This document shows, piece after piece, positions 52,232-58,708 of a stretch of 64,000 bases of DNA. This stretch comes from Escherichia phage warpig. Positions within the stretch are counted from its first letter, which is position 1; every line of letters starts with the position of its first letter. The translations under genes and the position numbers were made by a program. The notes under the pieces were generated by a model that was given only the letters and a program-made list of their open reading frames with translations, was not told where the DNA came from and did not search any database. The stretch lies in sequence record MN850637.1, one strand, 5' to 3'.

Positions 52232-53647
52232 ATGAGCGAATTATTTAAACATGCGCACCTTCATGCAGGTCGAACTGAAAATGGTGCTGTAAACCATACT
52301 TCATCAATGTCTGCTCTAGTAAACTTTTACAAAGCTGCTGGTTCAAGCCGTAGCAACGTAGAAATCTTACCAGACCTGTTCTACAAAGCTTTGCGTGAGG
52401 ATGTTGATGTTGCAGTTCGTATTTTGCTTCATATGCGAGATGTACGAGAAGGTATGGGTGAGCGTAAAGCCTTCAGAACTGTTTTGCTTCAAGCAATTGA
52501 AGACAAAGTTTTAGAGTCTACGCAGGTTCTTCGCATTATGGATAAGATTGCAGAACTTGGTCGTTTTGATGACTTCAAAATCTTCGTAGGTACTCGTTTC
52601 GAGACAGATGCCTTCAAACATTTAGAAGCAGCATTACTAGACCCTGCAACAGCAGGTTTGGCGGCTAAGTGGTTACCACGAGTCAAACCACGTCATAAGC
52701 AGTTTGTAAAACGTTTCTGCAAGTTTGCCAACTTGAGTGAGAAAGAGTACCGCACACTGTTGTCTGCACTATCTGATACAGTTGAGCAAAAAATCTCTGC
52801 TAATGAGTTTGGTAAGATTGACTACAGTAAGATTCCTTCACTTGCTGCTGCACGTTACCAAAAACTGTTTAACCGTAAAGATGGAGAGCGTTACAAAGCT
52901 TACATCGAGTCCTTATCAAAAGGTGAGACTAAGATTAACGCTGGTGCTGTTTACCCATACGATGTGATTAAATCTGTCAAGTATGGTAATGCAGATGTTG
53001 CTAATGAGCAGTGGAAAGCACTACCAAACTGGATGGCAGAAGGTGAAAACATCTTGTGTATGTCTGATGTATCAAGTTCAATGTCTTGGGTGAATTTTGG
53101 CTCCATTACTGCTCTGGATATTGGTGTATCACTTGCCTTGTATGTAGCAGAACGCAATACAGGTTGCTTTAAGAATGAGTTAATGGTTTATTCAACAAAC
53201 CCTCACTTCATCGAACTGAGTGGTGATTTACGAAACCGTCATCGTCAGGTGATGCGACACGTTGAATATGGCTCAACTAACTTACAAGCAGCTTTTGACC
53301 GCATTCTTGAAACAGGTAAAAGAAACAACTTGACTCAGAAAGATATGCCAAGTAAGCTTATCATCTTCTCCGATATGGAGTTCAATCAGGTTGATGGAGC
53401 TAACGGTCGTACAAACTTTGAAGCAATTCAGAGTAAGTACAAAAAAGCTGGATATGAGATGCCACAACTGGTATTCTGGTACTTAGCAAACCGTAATGGT
53501 ACTTGCGAAGTATCTGTTAAGGATAACGGTGTAGCAATGGTATCAGGGTTCTCTCCAGCCACTTTAAAAGCTCTGCTTGGTGGTGAGAAGTTTGACCCAA
53601 TCAGTGTAATGCTCAAAGCAGTAATGATTGACCGTTATATCTGGTAA
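52232..53647 (+). CDS. vWA-domain protein (possible TROVE/Ro60-like or DUF-type)
   Basis: 471 aa; MIDAS-like DVSSSMS and downstream vWA-like segment; N-terminal helical domain unassigned. Confidence 0.45.
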   Translation: MSELFKHAHLHAGRTENGAVNHTSSMSALVNFYKAAGSSRSNVEILPDLFYKALREDVDVAVRILLHMRDVREGMGERKAFRTVLLQAIEDKVLESTQVLRIMDKIAELGRFDDFKIFVGTRFETDAFKHLEAALLDPATAGLAAKWLPRVKPRHKQFVKRFCKFANLSEKEYRTLLSALSDTVEQKISANEFGKIDYSKIPSLAAARYQKLFNRKDGERYKAYIESLSKGETKINAGAVYPYDVIKSVKYGNADVANEQWKALPNWMAEGENILCMSDVSSSMSWVNFGSITALDIGVSLALYVAERNTGCFKNELMVYSTNPHFIELSGDLRNRHRQVMRHVEYGSTNLQAAFDRILETGKRNNLTQKDMPSKLIIFSDMEFNQVDGANGRTNFEAIQSKYKKAGYEMPQLVFWYLANRNGTCEVSVKDNGVAMVSGFSPATLKALLGGEKFDPISVMLKAVMIDRYIW

Positions 53648-53665: not shown

Positions 53666-53694
53666 TTGACAATGTGTTTAATACCCTTTAATAT
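53666..53694 (+). promoter_or_regulatory. sigma70-like promoter with overlapping palindrome
   Basis: TTGACA - 17 bp - TAATAT; inverted repeat GGGTATT...AATACCC spans the -35/spacer. Confidence 0.55.
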
Positions 53695-53756: not shown

Positions 53757-53786
53757 TTGACAACCACTAAAAAATAATGTTAAAGT
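53757..53786 (+). promoter_or_regulatory. sigma70-like promoter with overlapping palindrome
   Basis: TTGACA - 17/18 bp - TAAAGT; inverted repeat AACCACT...AGTGGTT in spacer; upstream of first tRNA. Confidence 0.45.
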
Positions 53787-53812: not shown

Positions 53813-53889
53813 CTCTGTTTAGCTCAGCTTGGTAGAGCGTTCCGTTTGGGGCGGTAAGGCCGGAGGTTCAAGTCCTCCAACAGAGACCA
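53813..53889 (+). tRNA. tRNA-Pro (anticodon TGG)
   Basis: Hand-folded: acceptor CTCTGTT/AACAGAG, D-arm GCTC...GAGC, loop TTTGGGG, T-arm GGAGG-TTCAAGT-CCTCC, CCA encoded. Confidence 0.7.
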
Positions 53890-53896
53890 AATTAAT

Positions 53897-53974
53897 GTTC
53901 CAGTAGACAAAATGGTAAAGTCACCACTCTTTCAAAGTGGATATTTGAGGGTTCAAATCCCTTCTGGAACGCCA
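53897..53974 (+). tRNA. tRNA-Glu (anticodon TTC)
   Basis: Acceptor GTTCCAG/CTGGAAC, anticodon stem CCACT/AGTGG, loop CTTTCAA, T-loop TTCAAAT, CCA encoded. Confidence 0.7.
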
Positions 53975-54064
53975 GTTTTGACAGAAGACCAATTACAGCA
54001 AACTTAATCTACTCATCTGACACGAAATCGGACAAAGAAGATATTTGGTCTGGTCATTAAGAAT

Positions 54065-54141
54065 TGCGGGTATAGAGAAAGGGCGTCTCACATGTCTCAT
54101 TAGCATGGTATCGGCAGGTTCGACTCCTGCACCCGCCTCCA
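54065..54141 (+). tRNA. tRNA-Met or Ile2 (anticodon CAT)
   Basis: T-arm GCAGG-TTCGACT-CCTGC, acceptor 3' ACCCGCC, anticodon loop CTCATTA; position 37 is T (atypical). Confidence 0.55.
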
Positions 54142-54182
54142 AATTTACAGAAGACCGTTTACAGCAAAACTTAAACAATCTA

Positions 54183-54255
54183 TTTCTCGGTAAAGAAAAG
54201 GCGAAGGTTCGATTCCTTCACTCGGCAGATGTCGAGTTGGTGTAATGGTAGCACT
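54183..54255 (+). ncRNA. tRNA-like locus with permuted half order (3' half then 5' half)
   Basis: Hairpin (54183-54198) + T-arm GAAGG-TTCGATT-CCTTC + acceptor 3' ACTCGGC-A, 3 nt (GAT), then acceptor 5' GTCGAGT + D-arm GTGT-AATGGTA-GCAC; anticodon arm unresolved. Confidence 0.35.
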
Positions 54256-54426
54256 TAAGATGGTAAACAACGGTCTGGTAATTATCTTTGTAGATAAGTT
54301 ATTAAGCTTACCTGTGAGTATGCGACCACAAAGGGTGAAGGGTAAATTCTAGATTTAAACCCAAAAAGGCACATCGCTACAGACCTTAAGCAAGTCTGGG
54401 TAGCTTATCTACAAAGATAATTTAAT

Positions 54427-54502
54427 GGAAGTGTAGCAGAATGGTGATGCGGCAGACTTTTAATCTGACAGGCGATGGGTTCGAATCCCTCCACTTCTAC
54501 CA
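54427..54502 (+). tRNA. tRNA-Lys (anticodon TTT)
   Basis: Acceptor GGAAGTG/CACTTCT, loop CTTTTAA, T-loop TTCGAAT, CCA encoded. Confidence 0.7.
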
Positions 54503-54506
54503 AAAT

Positions 54507-54583
54507 GGTTCAGTCGCAGATAAGGTAATGCAAGGGTCTCATAAGCCCTATGAATGTGGGTTCGATTCCCATCTGAACCTCCA
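54507..54583 (+). tRNA. tRNA-Met or Ile2 (anticodon CAT)
   Basis: Acceptor GGTTCAG/CTGAACC, anticodon stem AGGGT/GCCCT, loop CTCATAA, T-arm GTGGG-TTCGATT-CCCAT. Confidence 0.7.
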
Positions 54584-54585
54584 AT

Positions 54586-54660
54586 TGTGGGTTAGCATAA
54601 ATGGTAATGCAAACGGCTGATAACCGTTAGAAGAGGGTTCGATACCCTCACCTACAACCA
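54586..54660 (+). tRNA. tRNA-Ile (anticodon GAT)
   Basis: Acceptor TGTGGGT/ACCTACA, D-arm GCAT...ATGC, anticodon stem AACGG/CCGTT, loop CTGATAA, T-arm GAGGG-TTCGATA-CCCTC. Confidence 0.8.
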
Positions 54661-54675
54661 ATTTCAATAAAGTTG

Positions 54676-54704
54676 TTGACATTGAGATGTGACCACTTTA
54701 TAGT
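54676..54704 (+). promoter_or_regulatory. sigma70-like promoter inside tRNA cluster
   Basis: TTGACA - 17 bp - TATAGT. Confidence 0.55.
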
Positions 54705-54908
54705 AACCTTAGTTTTCGTTGCGTAGCGTCTATTTTGCAAATTTAAAATAAATGCAAACGACAATGTTTTTCTGGCAGTAGCTTGATAGGCTAAACACCA
54801 GTGAGGTCTTCCAATCCCTCATCAAAGAATTTGGCGTACTCGCCCACGGTATGATTAATAAGGTGGGCATCTTTAAGGGCTTTCTAAGAGAGTCTTTAAA
54901 GATAATTA

Positions 54909-54990
54909 CGGGGCGTATCTCATCTGTCTTCTAAACAGACGTTAACCGAGTAAGTGGAGTATGCGGGTTCGAGTCCTGCCGCCTCGACCA
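54909..54990 (+). tRNA. atypical tRNA-like gene (anticodon loop TCTAAAC, long extra arm, minimal D region)
   Basis: Acceptor CGGGGCG/CGCCTCG with A73-CCA, T-arm GCGGG-TTCGAGT-CCTGC, hairpin TGTCT-TCTAAAC-AGACG; only about 7 nt where a D-arm should be. Confidence 0.4.
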
Positions 54991-55004
54991 ATTTTGGAGA
55001 AATC

Positions 55005-55352
55005 ATGAAAACTTGTATTAGGTGCAAACTTAGCAAGGATGAAAATGATTTCTACATGAAAGATGGTAGGAGAACTCATTCATACTGTAAAAAGTGTGTT
55101 AATGAGCAAACCATAGAAAGACAAAGAGCACTTAAACTCTCAGCTATTGAGTACAAAGGTGGGGTTTGTCATGATTGTGGTAAGAAATATCATCCAGCAG
55201 TGTATGACTTCCATCATTTGAATCCTTCAGATAAAGATTTTAACATTGGTCATAGGAAAAGCCTTAAGTTCTCTCAAGAACTAAAAGATGAACTTGACAA
55301 ATGTGTTTTGCTATGTTCAAATTGCCATAGGGTAAGACATGCAAAGTATTAG
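55005..55352 (+). CDS. HNH endonuclease
   Basis: 116 aa from ATG with RBS GGAGAAATC; CxxC...YDFHHLNPSDKDFNIG...LLCSNCHR HNH motif; embedded in tRNA cluster. Confidence 0.7.
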   Translation: MKTCIRCKLSKDENDFYMKDGRRTHSYCKKCVNEQTIERQRALKLSAIEYKGGVCHDCGKKYHPAVYDFHHLNPSDKDFNIGHRKSLKFSQELKDELDKCVLLCSNCHRVRHAKY

Positions 55353-55489
55353 TTAGCAGATTACTTAGACGACCTAAGCGGGTCTTCCTGTAGGGAGGTG
55401 GTCTGTATCTCATGTTTTCCAGAACATGTAAATAATCTGAGAAGGGGCTTTACAGTGTTGAGATAATACGGTAAGCTTCGAATTATAGT

Positions 55490-55572
55490 GTGGGACGATG
55501 TTAAGACTCTAAGGCATGAGCAACGGCTTCCAACACCGTTTCAAAGGGGTTCAACTCCTCCGTCCCATGCCA
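55490..55572 (+). tRNA. tRNA, possibly Trp (anticodon CCA), atypical D region
   Basis: T-arm AGGGG-TTCAACT-CCTCC, acceptor GTGGGAC/GTCCCAT, G73-CCA; anticodon stem AACGG/CCGTT with TTCCAAC loop; about 6 extra nt in D region. Confidence 0.4.
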
Positions 55573-55585
55573 AAGTCTTATTAGG

Positions 55586-55673
55586 GGTAGGTAGCGGCTA
55601 ATGGTAGCCAAACAGTCTTGAAAACTGTTGCCACTGTAGAGATACGGTGAGGGTTCGACTCCTTTACTTACCG
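55586..55673 (+). tRNA. tRNA-Ser (anticodon TGA), type II
   Basis: Acceptor GGTAGGT/ACTTACC, anticodon stem ACAGT/ACTGT, loop CTTGAAA, long variable arm, T-loop TTCGACT. Confidence 0.7.
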
Positions 55674-55829
55674 CCTAATAAGATTTAAAGCCAAGCTTCA
55701 TTCGGATGTCGCTTTGGTATCCCTCGTGTATTGTCGTACACACTGATAAAACACCTAGTAGGTGTCACGGAGAAGAGATAATATCAAGCTCTCCAAAGGT
55801 TCTAGTCACCGGATTAAACAAGACTATGC

Positions 55830-55851
55830 AAAGACCTTTTTAGGTCTTTTT
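55830..55851 (+). terminator. rho-independent terminator
   Basis: AAAGACC-TTTTTA-GGTCTTT followed by TT. Confidence 0.5.
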
Positions 55852-55930
55852 AGAGGGCTTCTAAGGTTATTACAGCTTGTTGTGGAACCTTGTTGCTTAG
55901 GTTCTTAGAAGTTCTCTAAAAAGATTTAAT

Positions 55931-56008
55931 GGGAGATTGACGGTAATTGGTAAACCTACCATCCTTAGAAGTTGGTGTTTGAGGGTTCGAATCCCTTGTC
56001 TCCTACCA
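55931..56008 (+). tRNA. tRNA with Leu anticodon TAG, short variable arm
   Basis: Acceptor GGGAGAT/GTCTCCT, A73-CCA, D-loop AATTGGTAAA (Leu-like), loop CTTAGAA, 5-nt variable loop, T-loop TTCGAAT. Confidence 0.5.
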
Positions 56009-56015
56009 AATTAAT

Positions 56016-56091
56016 GCAGGTGTAGCAAAATGGTTATGCGGCTGACTCTTAATCAGTAAGACGATGGGTTCAATTCCCTCCACCTGTACCA
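56016..56091 (+). tRNA. tRNA-Lys (anticodon CTT)
   Basis: Acceptor GCAGGTG/CACCTGT, anticodon stem GCTGA/TCAGT, loop CTCTTAA, T-loop TTCAATT. Confidence 0.7.
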
Positions 56092-56097
56092 GACATT

Positions 56098-56173
56098 GGG
56101 GTCATAGTTTATATGGTTAAAATTCGAGTTTTGCAAACTTGGGAACTGAGTTCAATTCTCAGTGACTCCACCA
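56098..56173 (+). tRNA. tRNA-Ala (anticodon TGC)
   Basis: Acceptor GGGGTCA/TGACTCC with G3-T70 wobble (Ala identity pair), loop TTTGCAA, T-arm CTGAG-TTCAATT-CTCAG. Confidence 0.75.
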
Positions 56174-56179
56174 ATTAGT

Positions 56180-56254
56180 GCATCCATAGTTTAAACGGGA
56201 AAATTACAGTCTTCCAAACTGAGGTTGAGGGTTCGATTCCCTCTGGATGCTCCA
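56180..56254 (+). tRNA. tRNA-Gly (anticodon TCC)
   Basis: Acceptor GCATCCA/TGGATGC, loop CTTCCAA, T-loop TTCGATT. Confidence 0.75.
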
Positions 56255-56261
56255 AATTAAT

Positions 56262-56337
56262 GCTCCTATCGTATAATAGGCTATTACGGTTGCCTTGTAA
56301 GCAACTTATCAGGGTTCGAATCCTTGTGGGAGCACCA
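56262..56337 (+). tRNA. tRNA-Thr (anticodon TGT)
   Basis: Acceptor GCTCCTA/TGGGAGC, anticodon stem GTTGC/GCAAC, loop CTTGTAA, T-loop TTCGAAT. Confidence 0.8.
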
Positions 56338-56443
56338 ATTCAGAGGTCAAGTGAAAGACCGCTGGTGTCAACTGAAGACCGTAACAAATTCCACGGAGTT
56401 GAGTTAGCGGCACAACTTCAGACCTCTTTCACACTCGCTTAGT

Positions 56444-56518
56444 TTATATGGTAAAACACCACCCTTACAAGATGAAGAAAAAGGTTCAAGTCCTTTAGTG
56501 AGTACCATGTTCCAGTAT
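56444..56518 (+). tRNA. tRNA, possibly Val (anticodon TAC), weak anticodon stem
   Basis: Acceptor ACTCGCT/AGTGAGT, D-arm GTTT...AAAC, T-arm AAAGG-TTCAAGT-CCTTT, CCA; anticodon arm has two mismatches. Confidence 0.4.
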
Positions 56519-56519
56519 C

Positions 56520-56597
56520 CCAATTGGCAGAGGATGCAAGCTCAAACCTTGTATTAGTGACGGTTCGAATCCGTCTTGGAACACCAATTTTAAGAGG
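56520..56597 (+). tRNA. tRNA with Leu anticodon CAA, short variable arm
   Basis: Acceptor GTTCCAG/TTGGAAC, A73-CCA, D-arm TCC-CAATTGGCAGA-GGA (Leu-like D-loop), anticodon stem GCAAG/CTTGT, loop CTCAAAC, 6-nt variable loop. Confidence 0.5.
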
Positions 56598-56605
56598 CTA
56601 TTTAG

Positions 56606-57163
56606 ATGAGATATTTGAAGTATGCTTCATGGATTTTCCTAGCTTTACTAGAGCCATTTGCAGCAACCCTAGCAGTCATCTTAGCACCTTTCGTAGTTCC
56701 ATTCTACAGTGAGAAGAAAGGACACCTACCTTTTGGATTCAGATGGATGGAGACCTATGACAACCCAATTGATGGTGATGAAGGTCACGTTAAAAGATGG
56801 GCTAAGATTAGAAAGATTGGTAAGCTGGGTGTCTACATGCAGAGAGTTGGATGGCTCTGGAGAAACAAAGCTTATAACTTCTCTTACCATGTATTAGGAA
56901 GAGATGTAAAAGATGTTACTAAGTGGAAAGGCAATATCAACGTAAGTTCTGACCCTGAAGATAATCAGACTGGTTATCTCCTAATGTGGAATAGCAATGC
57001 TTGGGGATTATTCGCTTTTATCCCATCAATTAAAGTCTTTGGTAAACAGTTTTACTGGAGAATTTATATTGGATGGAAACTAAAAAGCGTTGTCCCAGAA
57101 GAAAGAGCATTCTCAAGGGAAAGAGTTATGTTGGCATTCTTTATTCATCCACTGAGAAAGTAA
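56606..57163 (+). CDS. membrane protein inside tRNA cluster
   Basis: 185-aa ORF with N-terminal hydrophobic helices. Confidence 0.45.
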   Translation: MRYLKYASWIFLALLEPFAATLAVILAPFVVPFYSEKKGHLPFGFRWMETYDNPIDGDEGHVKRWAKIRKIGKLGVYMQRVGWLWRNKAYNFSYHVLGRDVKDVTKWKGNINVSSDPEDNQTGYLLMWNSNAWGLFAFIPSIKVFGKQFYWRIYIGWKLKSVVPEERAFSRERVMLAFFIHPLRK

Positions 57164-57171
57164 AGATTTAA

Positions 57172-57247
57172 AGGGGATTAGTTTACAAGGTTAAAACCTC
57201 GGTCTTTGAAATCGAAGAAGTTGGTTCAATTCCAACATCCCCCGCCA
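57172..57247 (+). tRNA. tRNA-Gln (anticodon TTG)
   Basis: D-arm GTTT...AAAC, anticodon stem TCGGT/ATCGA, loop CTTTGAA, T-arm GTTGG-TTCAATT-CCAAC, G73-CCA. Confidence 0.7.
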
Positions 57248-57249
57248 AT

Positions 57250-57328
57250 GCTCCATTACTCCAATTGGCAGAGAGGCCAGACTTAAAATCTGTGTTATGT
57301 ATCGGTTCGAATCCGATATGGAGTACCA
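57250..57328 (+). tRNA. tRNA with Leu anticodon TAA, short variable arm
   Basis: Acceptor GCTCCAT/ATGGAGT, A73-CCA, D-arm CTC-CAATTGGCA-GAG (same as 56520 tRNA), loop CTTAAAA, 7-nt variable loop, T-arm ATCGG-TTCGAAT-CCGAT. Confidence 0.5.
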
Positions 57329-57333
57329 AATTT

Positions 57334-57409
57334 AGCGGTATAGCATAACTGGCAATGCAACAGTCTCTGAAACTGTCCTATTAAGGTTCAAATCCTTATG
57401 CCGCTGCCA
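57334..57409 (+). tRNA. tRNA-Gln (anticodon CTG)
   Basis: Acceptor AGCGGTA/TGCCGCT, D-arm GCAT...ATGC, anticodon stem ACAGT/ACTGT, loop CTCTGAA, G73-CCA. Confidence 0.75.
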
Positions 57410-57440
57410 CTTCTAAGGGTTCTTACGAGAGTCCTTAAAT

Positions 57441-57516
57441 GTGGCCTTATCATAAATGGTAATGACCCATGCTGTGAACATGGTCTATACGGGTTCAAAT
57501 CCCGTAGGTCACCCCA
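57441..57516 (+). tRNA. tRNA-His (anticodon GTG)
   Basis: Acceptor GTGGCCT/AGGTCAC, anticodon stem CCATG/CATGG, loop CTGTGAA, T-arm ACGGG-TTCAAAT-CCCGT. Confidence 0.75.
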
Positions 57517-57521
57517 ATTTA

Positions 57522-57597
57522 TAGTCCAAGTAGCTTATATGGTGAAGCGCGTGTCTGAAAAACATGAGAAGAGGGTTCAAATCCCACTGGACTACCA
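57522..57597 (+). tRNA. tRNA-Phe (anticodon GAA)
   Basis: Acceptor TAGTCCA/TGGACTA, anticodon stem CGTGT/ACATG, loop CTGAAAA, T-loop TTCAAAT; 3' end register ambiguous. Confidence 0.6.
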
Positions 57598-57613
57598 ATT
57601 TCAAAGGTGCTTA

Positions 57614-58348
57614 ATGAAAGAGATGACAGAACAAGGTAAGGAGATTTTTAATCTCTTAAAAACCGGTAAAGGGTTTTCTAACCCACTTATTACTGGTGCA
57701 GCAGTTCTCGGTGGAACCGTAGCTGCCTCTACATCACTTGTAAGCTCTATTAGCTCTGTAACAGACCCTACAATGAAGGAGAAGCTTGTTGCTGCTGGAC
57801 TTACAACAGTCCTTCTAAACAGCTTTACAACAAGCCTGACAAGCACTACAGCAACCACTAAGACCCTAACAGACTATGGTCAAAAGTCTATTGATGAGTT
57901 TTCATCACGTATGCAGGTAGCAAAGGGATATTCCAATGTTATGGGTGCAGCAGGAGAACAAGTTGGTTGTACACCATTCAGTGGTATTATGGGTGTTGCT
58001 ACAGAGTATGGTCAAAAAGCTATTGACATGATTAACAGCACACTAGACAGTGTTAACGGTGTGTTAAGTGACTTACAAGACGCTATTGATAAGGGTCTTG
58101 ATACTGTTTCTGATTTAGCTAATCAGGCTGTTAGTAAGATTAATGAAGGTATCTCAAAGATTACAGCTTATGCAGATGAAGTTGTGCAGATGATTGAAGA
58201 AGAAGCTGCCCTTATTGCAGAGTACCTTAAAACGAATATCAATGGGTTCTTAGCAGGTATCTTACCAGACTGGTTTGATGATGCTTGTAAAACTGGTGTA
58301 ATCGACACTATTGCAACACCAGAAATGAAGAGCGCATTACAGAAATAA
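57614..58348 (+). CDS. hypothetical Ser/Thr-rich protein inside tRNA cluster
   Basis: 244 aa from internal ATG (track ORF at 57398 reads through three tRNAs). Confidence 0.45.
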   Translation: MKEMTEQGKEIFNLLKTGKGFSNPLITGAAVLGGTVAASTSLVSSISSVTDPTMKEKLVAAGLTTVLLNSFTTSLTSTTATTKTLTDYGQKSIDEFSSRMQVAKGYSNVMGAAGEQVGCTPFSGIMGVATEYGQKAIDMINSTLDSVNGVLSDLQDAIDKGLDTVSDLANQAVSKINEGISKITAYADEVVQMIEEEAALIAEYLKTNINGFLAGILPDWFDDACKTGVIDTIATPEMKSALQK

Positions 58349-58349
58349 T

Positions 58350-58442
58350 GGAAGATTAACCCTAAAAGGTAAGGGAGCAGTTTGCTAAACTGCCAGTAGC
58401 TGAGAAATCGGTGTACCAGTTCAAGTCTGGTATCTTCCTCCA
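58350..58442 (+). tRNA. tRNA-Ser (anticodon GCT), type II
   Basis: Acceptor GGAAGAT/ATCTTCC, anticodon stem GCAGT/ACTGC, loop TTGCTAA, long variable arm, T-arm ACCAG-TTCAAGT-CTGGT, CCA. Confidence 0.75.
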
Positions 58443-58446
58443 ATTT

Positions 58447-58522
58447 GAATCCGTGACAGAAATGGCTATGTGCCTGTCTGCAAAACAGGTTTATAAGGGT
58501 TCAAGTCCCTTCGGATTCTCCA
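58447..58522 (+). tRNA. tRNA-Cys (anticodon GCA)
   Basis: Acceptor GAATCCG/CGGATTC, anticodon stem CCTGT/ACAGG, loop CTGCAAA, T-arm AAGGG-TTCAAGT-CCCTT, CCA. Confidence 0.75.
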
Positions 58523-58684: not shown

Positions 58685-58708
58685 GACGGTCTCTGTGCCG
58701 TCTTTTTT
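58685..58708 (+). terminator. rho-independent terminator
   Basis: GACGG-loop-CCGTC followed by TTTTTT. Confidence 0.55.

Follow-up and report, generated by a model that had tools for sequence, protein, structure and literature searches.

Within the 64,000-nucleotide window analysed here, a stretch of Escherichia phage warpig DNA (MN850637.1), ARAGORN called a dense cluster of tRNA genes on the + strand, which holds three tRNA-Leu genes and two tRNA-Ser genes:

53813..58522, + strand: tRNA cluster holding the three tRNA-Leu genes (21 ARAGORN tRNAs, many just 1–8 nt apart)
55586..55675, + strand: tRNA-Ser (ARAGORN; segmentation)
55931..56008, + strand: tRNA-Leu(UAG), type I (ARAGORN, 78 nt with CCA; Rfam, 40.0 bits; segmentation)
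56509..56586, + strand: tRNA-Leu(CAA), type I (ARAGORN, 78 nt; Rfam, 44.0 bits)
57250..57328, + strand: tRNA-Leu(UAA), type I (ARAGORN, 79 nt; Rfam, 47.5 bits)
58350..58442, + strand: tRNA-Ser (ARAGORN; segmentation)

The source phage is a Felixounavirus (Felix O1-like), and the layout of the cluster is annotated identically in Escherichia phage skuden. Sigma-70-like promoter matches (53666–53694 and 53757–53786) and a terminator-like hairpin (58685–58702) are consensus hits that do not exceed shuffle expectation. The cluster also contains an aberrant tRNA-like element (54909–54987), and the Felix O1 paper describes two 'pseudo' tRNAs.

tRNA-Leu genes without a long variable arm

The initial annotation, working from folds made by eye, had proposed three Leu tRNAs (TAG, CAA, TAA) with short variable arms. 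ARAGORN and Rfam both called these genes, with variable loops of 5–7 nt, and the ARAGORN check of the cluster left the anticodons and the Leu isotype unchanged and revealed no misparsed long arm. In the search with Rfam model RF00005, all three genes scored above the curated gathering threshold of 29 bits (E = 4.5e-6 to 3.8e-8), although their scores (40–47.5 bits) were among the lowest within the tRNA cluster. The gene starts at 55931 and 57250 agreed with those first assigned, but position 56520 lies inside the second gene, whose real start is 56509. Segmentation gave variable loops of UGUUU (5 nt) in the UAG gene, AUUAGU (6 nt) in the CAA gene and GUUAUGU (7 nt) in the UAA gene. Before the encoded CCA, the cores measure 75, 75 and 76 nt, respectively, and thus leave no sequence for a long arm; the cores of E. 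coli leuW, leuX and leuZ are 82–84 nt, with arms of 13–15 nt. Both tRNA-Ser genes of the cluster (90–93 nt) are long-armed as initially described, with arms of 21–22 nt. The hallmark of type II tRNAs, a variable stem-loop of more than 10 nt, is absent from all three Leu genes, and gene length together with the two detectors rules out a hidden long arm or a misread anticodon. This confirmed that the three genes are real tRNA-Leu genes without a long arm.

The discriminator A73 is present in all three genes, and each anticodon (UAG, CAA, UAA) fits the Leu pattern NAG or YAA and sits in a 7-nt loop with U33. G18G19 is canonical, the T loop reads UUCGAAU, and both the T loops and the anticodon loops are intact. 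By segmentation, the D-loops are AATTGGTAAA (UAG), AATTGGCAGA (CAA) and AATTGGCAGA (UAA). The CAA and UAA genes have a type II-like D arm (3-bp stem, unpaired 13/22 in the form of C13.A22, 11-nt loop), with stems UCC/GGA and CUC/GAG, respectively, and the loop C13-AAUUGGCAGA in both. The D arm of tRNA-Leu(UAG) is irregular: it spans 18 nt (ACGGTAATTGGTAAACCT) and carries one extra nucleotide, either a bulged C or a mismatch. This gene also has G1.U72 and a U30.U40 mismatch, and its anticodon loop (CUUAGAA) has A37 in place of G37, the m1G37 site. In tRNA-Leu(CAA) the anticodon loop is CUCAAAC, with C38 disrupting the A36A37A38 MiaA motif, while tRNA-Leu(UAA) has the loop CUUAAAA along with G1.U72 and a C27.U43 mismatch. 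Single-sequence thermodynamic folding (RNAfold) recovered the cloverleaf poorly (z = −0.8, −2.2 and −1.7 for the three genes), so the support for the fold comes from the covariance model and from sequence comparison.

The D-loop pattern AATTGG(C/T)A(G/A)A had been noted as a Leu-type feature alongside A73. Both are present in all three genes by segmentation, but the pattern is not specific to Leu, as 88 of 120 motif matches in IMG/VR fell in Thr, Asn, Lys and other tRNAs. We accordingly rejected AATTGGYAGA as a Leu signature; in class I viral tRNAs it spans an 8-nt loop and a 4-bp GCTC/GAGC stem. What is Leu-like is instead the register: a 3-bp D stem, unpaired 13/22 and an extra A20a.

Conservation and distribution of the short form

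More than 250 relatives carry the three Leu genes in near-identical form, annotated plainly as tRNA-Leu, and this near-identity spans hundreds of Felixounavirus, Mooglevirus and Suspvirus records. REP6, REP9 and REP11 (Felixounavirus), phages of the recoded-E. coli study of Nyerges et al., have the genes too. tRNA-Leu(CAA) reaches at least 95% identity in 248 of 291 matching phage records and tRNA-Leu(UAA) at least 99% in 215 of 263, and an identical copy of tRNA-Leu(UAG) occurs in Salmonella phage FG1m. More distant orthologues are found in Erwinia phage phiEa21-4 (Kolesnikvirus; Leu caa, 77 nt; aag, 78 nt; taa, 77 nt). Here the acceptor, anticodon and T stems differ in sequence while pairing is kept, and the CAA fold is preserved through compensatory changes. 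Near-identity across hundreds of records and compensated stems in Kolesnikvirus both count in favour of purifying selection, which probably acts on these genes. Isotype models run with tRNAscan-SE in the related phage Sf14 ranked Leu top for all three homologues (PMC12482277). A search for tRNA-Leu(UAA) in 5,426 complete E. coli genomes gave no match, so we rejected a host-derived copy as the origin of this gene.

We extended the comparison to 67 distinct short phage tRNA-Leu sequences, in which 97.1% of stem positions pair and most of the 20 pairs show 4–6 pair types. A73 and U8 are present in all 67 and U48 in 66, while A14 and A15 were found in 53 of 53 and A20a in 52 of 53; N13.A22 pairs in none. 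Covariation links position 9 to the 12-23 pair (A9 with C-G, G9 with G-C), as expected of a folded core. This core is the same as that of 52 long-armed phage tRNA-Leu, all of which also carry A73. The variable loop is 5 nt long in 59 of the 67, and at least two structural subtypes can be distinguished among the short forms.

The first reading had described a class-I-shaped Leu set encoded by the phage. Such a set is indeed present, but it is not peculiar to the source phage, being widespread in phages and Actinomycetota. Short tRNA-Leu genes also occur in Erwinia, Aeromonas and Lactobacillus phages, and in an IMG/VR sample they made up about one quarter to one third of phage tRNA-Leu genes (29 short versus 51 long overall, outside the search pattern; 14 versus 42 in a less biased subset). 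The same sample retained the long arm in 54 of 54 tRNA-Ser and 31 of 34 tRNA-Tyr genes; arm loss in this sample is confined to Leu, which we count in favour of the functional reading given below. Many Actinomycetota carry short tRNA-Leu as solitary chromosomal genes. The D arm U8 A9, NCC-C-AAUUGGCAGA-GGN gave at least 120 bacterial matches, with about 85% Actinomycetota among the matches listed. The CAA and UAA genes share this Actinomycetota-type D arm; the UAG gene lacks it, has G9 and is nearer to type II. Short tRNA-Leu is found as well in tRNA arrays of non-actinobacterial genomes, with every Leu gene of the array short. Our literature search for earlier accounts of type I tRNA-Leu in phages returned just a one-line remark on a Mycobacterium tRNA array. 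Short-armed tRNA-Leu is thus real, common in phages and Actinobacteria, under-described, and not unique to the source phage.

Identity elements and predicted charging by LeuRS

The published identity set of E. coli LeuRS consists of A73, A15-U48, G18G19 and A20a and does not include the long arm, and arm-less minimal tRNALeu constructs were still charged according to the same review (PMC9976931). That review further records that E. coli LeuRS charges arm-less RNAs as long as they retain A73 and the D/T-loop tertiary contacts (Asahara, 1993; Asahara, 1998; Larkin, 2002; PMC9976931). Since such engineered variants are charged, the phage tRNAs would be expected to be chargeable as well, with the difference that the variants were laboratory constructs, some of them also without an anticodon arm and charged less efficiently, whereas the phage genes encode complete cloverleaves that occur in nature and are conserved. 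The nucleotides for U8-A14, A15-U48, G18G19, A20a and U54-A58 are present in all three Leu genes, with their pairing predicted from sequence. All elements required by LeuRS appear to be kept, the long arm excepted, and two of the three genes have the 3-bp D stem. The initial suggestion that the short arm could matter for charging found no support here.

A functional precedent comes from Streptomyces coelicolor, whose type I tRNALeu(CAA), with the variable loop ACAGC, is charged and essential (PMC6614811). Like the phage genes, it is a bacterial-type Leu tRNA with a short (5-nt) loop, and in Streptomyces it receives leucine from LeuRS and takes part in translation. In addition, the genome scan found the D arm UA-GCC-C-AAUUGGCAGA-GGC in many Actinomycetota tRNA-Leu, as in the phage CAA and UAA genes, and the commonest variable loops of phage and actinobacterial short tRNA-Leu are ACAGU and CCAGU. 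The two systems also differ. The phage loops are 5, 6 and 7 nt long and end in U48, not C48; all three phage isoacceptors are type I, but only one in Streptomyces; and the phage host is enterobacterial with type II tRNA-Leu only. In Streptomyces, moreover, A73 reportedly does not serve as an identity element, and LeuRS (ScoLeuRS) needs a specialised leucine-specific domain (PMC6614811). Fan et al. (2019) stated that E. coli LeuRS 'only charges type II' and found that the Streptomyces type I tRNALeu(CAA) was not leucylated by it (PMC6614811). We suggest that this failure may reflect C48 in the S. coelicolor tRNA, where the phage Leu genes have U48.

Compared with type II tRNA-Leu (leuW, leuX, leuZ; T5 UAG), the phage genes share the anticodons, A73, U8-A14, A15-U48 and the encoded CCA, together with a 3-bp D stem with N13.A22, the loop AAUUGG-Y-A-G-A with A20a, a TΨC-type loop and, in some members, G1.U72. 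They differ in having 5–7 unpaired nt in place of a 13–15 nt stem-loop arm, and in two of the genes A9, C12-G23 and C13 replace G9, G12-C23 and G13. The anticodon loops also diverge between phage and host (CUUAGAA versus UUUAGGU, CUCAAAC versus UUCAAAA, and CUUAAAA versus UUUAAAA). Animal mitochondrial tRNA-Leu is likewise type I, with A73 and A14 as identity elements, but has degenerate D/T loops and is served by a dedicated mitochondrial LeuRS, whereas the phage genes have canonical G18G19 and TΨC and must use the host bacterial LeuRS. A phage LeuRS has not been reported in Felix O1-type genomes. The situation matches that of a tRNALeu(TAG) with a short variable loop, noted by Behra et al. 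(2019; PMC6582537) in a tRNA gene array of Mycobacterium, although the host there is actinobacterial and the one-sentence remark comes without analysis of identity elements, distribution or charging.

Across 61 ORFs of the window, leucine codons were used at 29% (CUU), 24% (UUA), 15% (UUG), 14.5% (CUG) and 12% (CUA). In an alignment with 70 distant terminase homologues, UUA, UUG, CUA and CUU fell on Leu in 13 of 14 cases at conserved columns, a small test (14 columns) of codons that host tRNAs read too. An anticodon-swapped phage tRNA-Leu was reportedly used by Nyerges et al. in 2023 in recoded E. coli, and we take phage OSYSP to be the source of that tRNA. We rejected the OSYSP tRNA-Leu as evidence for type I charging: OSYSP is a T5-like Tequintavirus and T5 tRNA-Leu is long-armed, so this lead gives no support.

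Probable function of the genes and the missing arm

We consider it probable, at roughly 75%, that the three genes are functional type I Leu tRNAs, charged by host LeuRS and decoding UUA, UUG and CUN. The Leu genes would be transcribed together with the rest of the + strand cluster and processed, and CCA addition would be unnecessary because the CCA ends are encoded. They would most likely be aminoacylated by the LeuRS of the host (E. coli or Salmonella) and, once charged, would serve translation by decoding UUA, UUG and CUN, which the AT-rich phage uses far more often than CUG, the codon favoured by the host. The long arm may be missing from the phage Leu genes because LeuRS, unlike SerRS, does without it, and the tRNA-Ser genes of the same cluster would retain theirs because SerRS requires the arm. 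The Leu genes are probably members of an ancient type I lineage that is spread widely among many phages, mobile tRNA arrays and Actinomycetota chromosomes, and are not a recent oddity of the source phage.

A different account keeps the Leu function and concerns solely why the arm is short, proposing that it was shed to escape a host factor that reads the type II arm (for example, a nuclease or nucleotidyltransferase toxin), or that host SerRS and TyrRS cannot mischarge the short form, which would make it portable between hosts. We regard this as unlikely. The frequency of short tRNA-Leu in phages (14 versus 42 in the less biased subset), the non-actinobacterial arrays in which all Leu genes are short, the existence of at least two structural subtypes and the lack of such a gene in E. 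coli (tRNA-Leu(UAA) search, 5,426 genomes) are consistent with it; so are the proposal that phage tRNAs differ from those of the host so as to evade anticodon nucleases (PMC10264068) and the preference of MenT family toxins for tRNA-Ser, reportedly via the long variable loop. However, that anticodon-loop hypothesis makes no mention of variable arms (PMC10264068), and we found neither evidence for the nuclease escape raised in the first reading nor a defence effector known to target tRNA-Leu through its variable arm. Nor did we find a link to the Salmonella and E. coli tRNA nucleases considered: Gifsy-1 terminase cleaves tRNALeu(CAG) at the anticodon, HepS cleaves the anticodon loops of Thr, Ile and Ser tRNAs, and the bacterial Schlafen studied cleaves the anticodon stem. 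Furthermore, many Actinomycetota carry this short form as a solitary gene with a housekeeping role, for which a phage-defence explanation is unnecessary, and most phage tRNA-Leu genes still have the long arm, that of T5 among them. We hold it similarly doubtful that type I tRNA-Leu is a positively selected hallmark of phages and mobile arrays, giving a complete host-independent Leu set (UAG, CAA, UAA) that would be unseen by long-arm-reading host factors and impossible for SerRS or TyrRS to mischarge.

We judge it very improbable that the genes are relics without function, or that they serve as tRNA-like decoys outside translation, for instance by sequestering a nuclease or binding LeuRS. Their covariance scores do lie below those of their cluster neighbours, tRNA-Leu(UAG) and tRNA-Leu(UAA) have stem mismatches, and degenerate tRNAs do occur in Felix O1-type clusters (the two 'pseudo' tRNAs and the element at 54909–54987). 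Against this stand near-perfect conservation across hundreds of isolates, compensatory changes in distant orthologues, A73, U8, A14, A15 and U48 at or near 100% across 67 distinct sequences, intact T and anticodon loops and an encoded CCA. Least credible of all, with hardly any weight, is charging with an amino acid other than Leu, in which another synthetase would read the class I shape with an NAG or NAA anticodon and Leu codons would be recoded or mistranslated. The absence of the type II hallmark would fit such charging, but by the established identity rules anticodons with A35 are not known to fit the anticodon-reading class I synthetases, G3.U70 is found in none of the three genes, UUA, UUG, CUA and CUU match Leu in the conserved terminase columns, the Leu isotype model was best for the Sf14 homologues, and the LeuRS identity set is complete. 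Precedents do exist in yeast mitochondrial tRNAThr(UAG) and Ashbya tRNAAla(UAG) (reviewed in PMC7609411).

In textbooks, bacterial tRNA-Leu is almost universally long-armed. Streptomyces has been described as the exception, with E. coli LeuRS type II-only (Fan et al., 2019, NAR; PMC6614811). Our survey suggests that arm-less tRNA-Leu is routine in phages, including those of E. coli and Salmonella, and in Actinomycetota, with the LeuRS identity elements kept, and for annotation this means that phage tRNA-Leu genes should not be marked as pseudogenes on account of being short. Should positive selection prove to be the explanation, enterobacterial LeuRS would charge a natural type I tRNA-Leu efficiently, against the published type II-only statement. 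If the phage tRNAs are charged in enterobacteria, they would prove, by a natural example, that leucylation in vivo can proceed without the long arm, would offer a compact and well-conserved scaffold for tRNA engineering, and would make it more pressing to ask why the arm is kept in cells when many phages lack it.

Gene calls and anatomy of the tRNA-Leu genes

ARAGORN, run on the whole window, called 21 tRNA genes between 53813 and 58522, all on the + strand. Three of these are tRNA-Leu genes that score above the gathering score of the Rfam tRNA model (29):

55931-56008, +, tRNA-Leu(tag), called by ARAGORN, Rfam tRNA model 40.0 bits
56509-56586, +, tRNA-Leu(caa), called by ARAGORN, Rfam tRNA model 44.0 bits
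57250-57328, +, tRNA-Leu(taa), called by ARAGORN, Rfam tRNA model 47.5 bits

The initial annotation had read these by eye as short-armed Leu tRNAs with anticodons TAG, CAA and TAA, and the ARAGORN and Rfam calls and our segmentation agree with it. ARAGORN returned the claimed isotypes and anticodons, and none of its three drawn structures contains a long arm. The position proposed for the second gene, 56520, falls within that gene, but the gene begins at 56509. By segmentation, cores of 75 (UAG), 75 (CAA) and 76 nt (UAA) are followed by an encoded CCA, with variable loops UGUUU (UAG), AUUAGU (CAA) and GUUAUGU (UAA), D-loops AATTGGTAAA (UAG) and AATTGGCAGA (CAA and UAA), and the expected discriminator A73 in 3/3 genes. 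The two tRNA-Ser genes (90 and 93 nt) do carry long arms, of 21-22 nt, as had been noted. Single-sequence thermodynamic folding recovered the Leu cloverleafs poorly, as is common for AT-rich tRNA transcripts, and the fold is therefore drawn from the covariance model and comparison with relatives. The short-armed Leu set is a correct and solid observation.

Apart from the arm, these tRNAs are built like bacterial tRNA-Leu; the E. coli genes leuW, leuX and leuZ, with the same three anticodons, have arms of 13, 13 and 15 nt. U8 is present, and U48 as the final variable nucleotide and the T loop UUCGAAU are found in all three. In the CAA and UAA genes the D stem is 3 bp long, position 13 after it is unpaired, and the loop then reads A14 A15 U16 U17 G18 G19 Y20 A20a R21 A22. 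tRNA-Leu(UAG) is the odd one, with an 18-nt D arm containing one extra nucleotide (a bulged C or mismatch), a U30.U40 mismatch, and A37 where the host CUN-reading tRNA-Leu has G37. In tRNA-Leu(CAA), C38 breaks the A36A37A38 motif, and all three anticodon loops differ from those of E. coli tRNA-Leu with the same anticodons.

The description of the D-loops as Leu-type holds for architecture but not as a sequence signature. Scanning IMG/VR for AATTGGYAGA followed by a T loop at class I spacing matched at least 120 loci, and only 32 of the 120 matches listed were tRNA-Leu, the others being Thr, Asn, Lys and other tRNAs. In non-Leu tRNAs the motif fills an 8-nt loop and runs two bases into a 4-bp GCTC/GAGC stem, whereas in tRNA-Leu it lies within a loop of 11 nt on a 3-bp stem, and this difference in register makes the motif Leu-like as architecture only.

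We compared 67 distinct short phage tRNA-Leu with 52 long-armed ones. Across the short set 97.1% of stem cells are paired, with 4-6 Watson-Crick or G-U types at nearly each stem pair; A73 and U8 are found in 67/67, U48 in 66/67, A14 and A15 in 53/53, A20a in 52/53, and N13.A22 pairing in none. The long-armed set has a matching conserved-core profile. Position 9 covaries with the 12-23 pair in the short set: A9 occurs with C12-G23 and C13 in 39/67, including the window CAA and UAA genes, and G9 with G12-C23, as in type II (long-armed) tRNAs, including the UAG gene. This covariation is consistent with a conserved base triple, and it suggests that the short tRNAs form two or more structural subtypes. 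Where Kolesnikvirus and Felixounavirus orthologues differ in the stems of the acceptor, anticodon and T arms, the stems remain paired. These comparisons support the view that the genes encode functional tRNAs.

Other elements of the tRNA cluster

Several further features lie in or beside the cluster:

52232-53647, +, 471-aa protein with DUF2828 and DUF7788 matches
54909-54987, +, tRNA-like element, Rfam tRNA call of 33.4 bits, not called by ARAGORN
56606-57163, +, 185-aa ORF matching Pfam DUF7338 end to end (E = 2e-61)
57398-58348, +, 316-aa ORF, GenBank 'putative membrane protein' (skuden_66)

The 471-aa protein, labeled 'vWFA protein' or 'RNA-binding protein' in different GenBank records, is immediately upstream of the tRNA genes, and this position might carry meaning if, say, the protein binds RNA in the manner of Ro/TROVE proteins. 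The acceptor stem of the tRNA-like element is 7 bp long, includes G3.U70 and is followed by A73 plus CCA; the element also has a good T arm, its anticodon-like loop reads CUUCUAA (UCU), and it differs from the normal tRNA-Arg(UCU) at the equivalent place in skuden and phiEa21-4. It lies directly upstream of an HNH endonuclease ORF (55005-55352), and at least 80% of a 151-nt query spanning this arrangement was covered in 101 phage records, mostly Felixounavirus, one of which annotates 'tRNA'. The DUF7338 ORF, with a hydrophobic N-terminus, sits between tRNA-Leu(caa) and tRNA-Gln and is kept in Felix O1-type phages. As annotated, the 316-aa ORF runs across the 3' end of tRNA-Gln(ctg) and the complete tRNA-His (57441-57516) and tRNA-Phe (57523-57597) genes; translation probably begins at an internal Met past 57597, so the database annotation is likely over-extended.

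Between tRNA-Met and tRNA-Lys (54141-54427) the window lacks the tRNA-Asn/Tyr/Asp block of skuden and Felix O1, and its cluster is thus without tRNA-Tyr, the third type II tRNA. tRNA-Glu(ttc) (53897-53974) and tRNA-Leu(caa) have an identical 5' acceptor strand, GTTCCAG, with 3' strands CTGGAAC and TTGGAAC and discriminators G and A, respectively. In Salmonella phage FG1m (PP068123; locus L004, 3999-4076), the 'tRNA-Leu(caa)' is a chimera of a 5' part from Leu(caa) with the 3' T-stem and acceptor strands of Leu(taa), leaving the acceptor stem partly mismatched. This fits a deletion via the identical T loops, in which the DUF7338 ORF, tRNA-Gln(ttg) and most of Leu(taa) would have been lost.

Short tRNA-Leu in phages and cellular genomes

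Over its tRNA region the window shares 99.5% identity with Escherichia phage skuden and 97-98% with Felix O1 and many further Felixounavirus members, whose records annotate the three genes as plain tRNA-Leu. Of 263 phage records that match tRNA-Leu(taa), 215 reach at least 99% identity; for tRNA-Leu(caa), 248 of 291 reach at least 95%. The tRNAs are listed in the Felix O1 genome paper with nothing said of their shape; for the related phage Sf14, a 2025 analysis using tRNAscan-SE isotype models ranks Leu top for each of the three homologues, again with no mention of the variable arm (PMC12482277).

The short form is widespread. It occurs in Erwinia phage phiEa21-4 (Kolesnikvirus; caa 77 nt, aag 78 nt, taa 77 nt), Aeromonas phage AhP_Mru1 (Demerecviridae; taa, 77 nt) and Lactobacillus phage LpeD (Herelleviridae; tag, taa and caa, 74-77 nt, beside 90-nt tRNA-Ser genes). 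Phage T5 Leu(UAG), unlike that of the window, is long-armed (85 nt). When two short IMG/VR sequences were compared with cultured phages by BLAST, full-length relatives bearing the annotation tRNA-Leu came from Escherichia phage 4MG, Klebsiella KB57, Salmonella SSE121 and Cronobacter phages, and from Lactobacillus, Corynebacterium, Synechococcus and Myxococcus phages; shorter matches came from Vibrio, Providencia and Proteus T5-like phages and from Streptomyces and Mycobacterium phages. In the IMG/VR sample (1.12 Mb, 954 tRNAs), which was motif-selected and gives rough fractions, 80 tRNA-Leu outside the search pattern at the loci listed comprised 29 with cores of 73-77 nt and 51 with cores of at least 80 nt. 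At the 90 listed loci with a non-Leu match, 14 tRNA-Leu were short versus 42 long, and long forms made up 54/54 tRNA-Ser and 31/34 tRNA-Tyr at the loci listed.

A GTDB scan of one genome per species, requiring type I (short variable loop) spacing and a Leu-type anticodon loop, gave at least 120 matches, and all but one of those listed were called tRNA-Leu (74-78 nt). Actinomycetota account for ~85% of the matches listed, including Nocardia, Gordonia, Rhodococcus, Mycobacterium, Corynebacterium, Arthrobacter, Bifidobacterium and others. At 99/120 listed loci the short Leu is the sole tRNA within 8 kb and thus a solitary chromosomal gene; the remaining listed loci are dense arrays (7-26 tRNAs per 8 kb) in Cyanobacteria, Rhodocyclaceae, Planctomycetota and others, with every Leu gene short. 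Five such loci (L188, L192, L137, L214 and L216, from Cylindrospermum, a Rhodocyclaceae MAG, Asanoa and other genomes) hold 17-26 tRNAs in 8 kb, each tRNA-Leu being short, and L188 has five isoacceptors of 74-78 nt. These arrays of 17-26 tRNAs look mobile or phage-derived. No tRNA-Leu(UAA) homologue was found in 5,426 complete E. coli genomes.

The commonest variable loops of phage and actinobacterial short Leu among the matches listed are ACAGU and CCAGU, compared with ACAGC in S. coelicolor type I tRNALeu(CAA) (Fan et al., 2019). The D arm of this actinobacterial and phage lineage, UA-NCC-C-AAUUGGCAGA-GGN, is common to the window CAA and UAA genes.

Probable charging, decoding and possible origin of the short arm

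Close spacing, a shared strand and CCA ends present in the DNA suggest that the three genes are transcribed polycistronically with the cluster and processed in the standard way. Sites resembling promoters and a terminator lie on either side of the cluster, at no more than shuffle expectation. The three anticodons cover UUA, UUG and CUN. Leu codons in window ORFs are CUU 29%, UUA 24%, UUG 15%, CUG 14.5%, CUA 12% and CUC 5%; in E. coli, CUG makes up about half and CUA is rare. Across 70 distant terminase homologues, window UUA/UUG/CUA/CUU codons stand opposite Leu in 13/14 conserved columns, giving no sign of recoding.

E. coli LeuRS recognizes A73 and tertiary elements (A15-U48, G18G19, A20a and D/T-loop contacts); neither the anticodon nor the long arm is needed, and arm-less variants are still charged, whereas the arm is a major identity element for SerRS (PMC9976931). 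This difference accounts for the pattern in the window and in phages generally, since tRNA-Leu can drop the arm and tRNA-Ser cannot. We infer that host LeuRS would charge the phage tRNAs with leucine without need for a long arm. The strongest evidence against this comes from Fan et al. (2019; PMC6614811), who report that E. coli LeuRS 'only charges type II' and that it did not charge the type I tRNA of Streptomyces. That tRNA, however, has C48, whereas the phage tRNAs have the A15-U48 pair needed by E. coli LeuRS, and it is possible from this comparison that C48 accounts for the failure.

The simplest reading of the short arm is an old arm-less lineage, inherited under a synthetase indifferent to the arm. 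An adaptive short arm, evading a factor that recognizes type II arms or insulating the tRNA from SerRS/TyrRS in changing hosts, is conceivable, but we found no support for it; the published tRNA-targeting effectors that we surveyed attack the anticodon loop or stem, or isoacceptors other than these. Type I tRNA-Leu has already been described in mitochondria and S. coelicolor (PMC6614811), and a tRNALeu(TAG) with a short loop, part of a tRNA array in Mycobacterium, received a one-sentence mention (Behra et al., 2019; PMC6582537). In the literature searched, with incomplete coverage and an earlier mention possible, we found no account of arm-less tRNA-Leu as a trait common among phages, or of its presence in enterobacterial phages. 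The three genes themselves have been annotated for years; the short phage tRNA-Leu is under-described, and its explanation is mechanistically ordinary.
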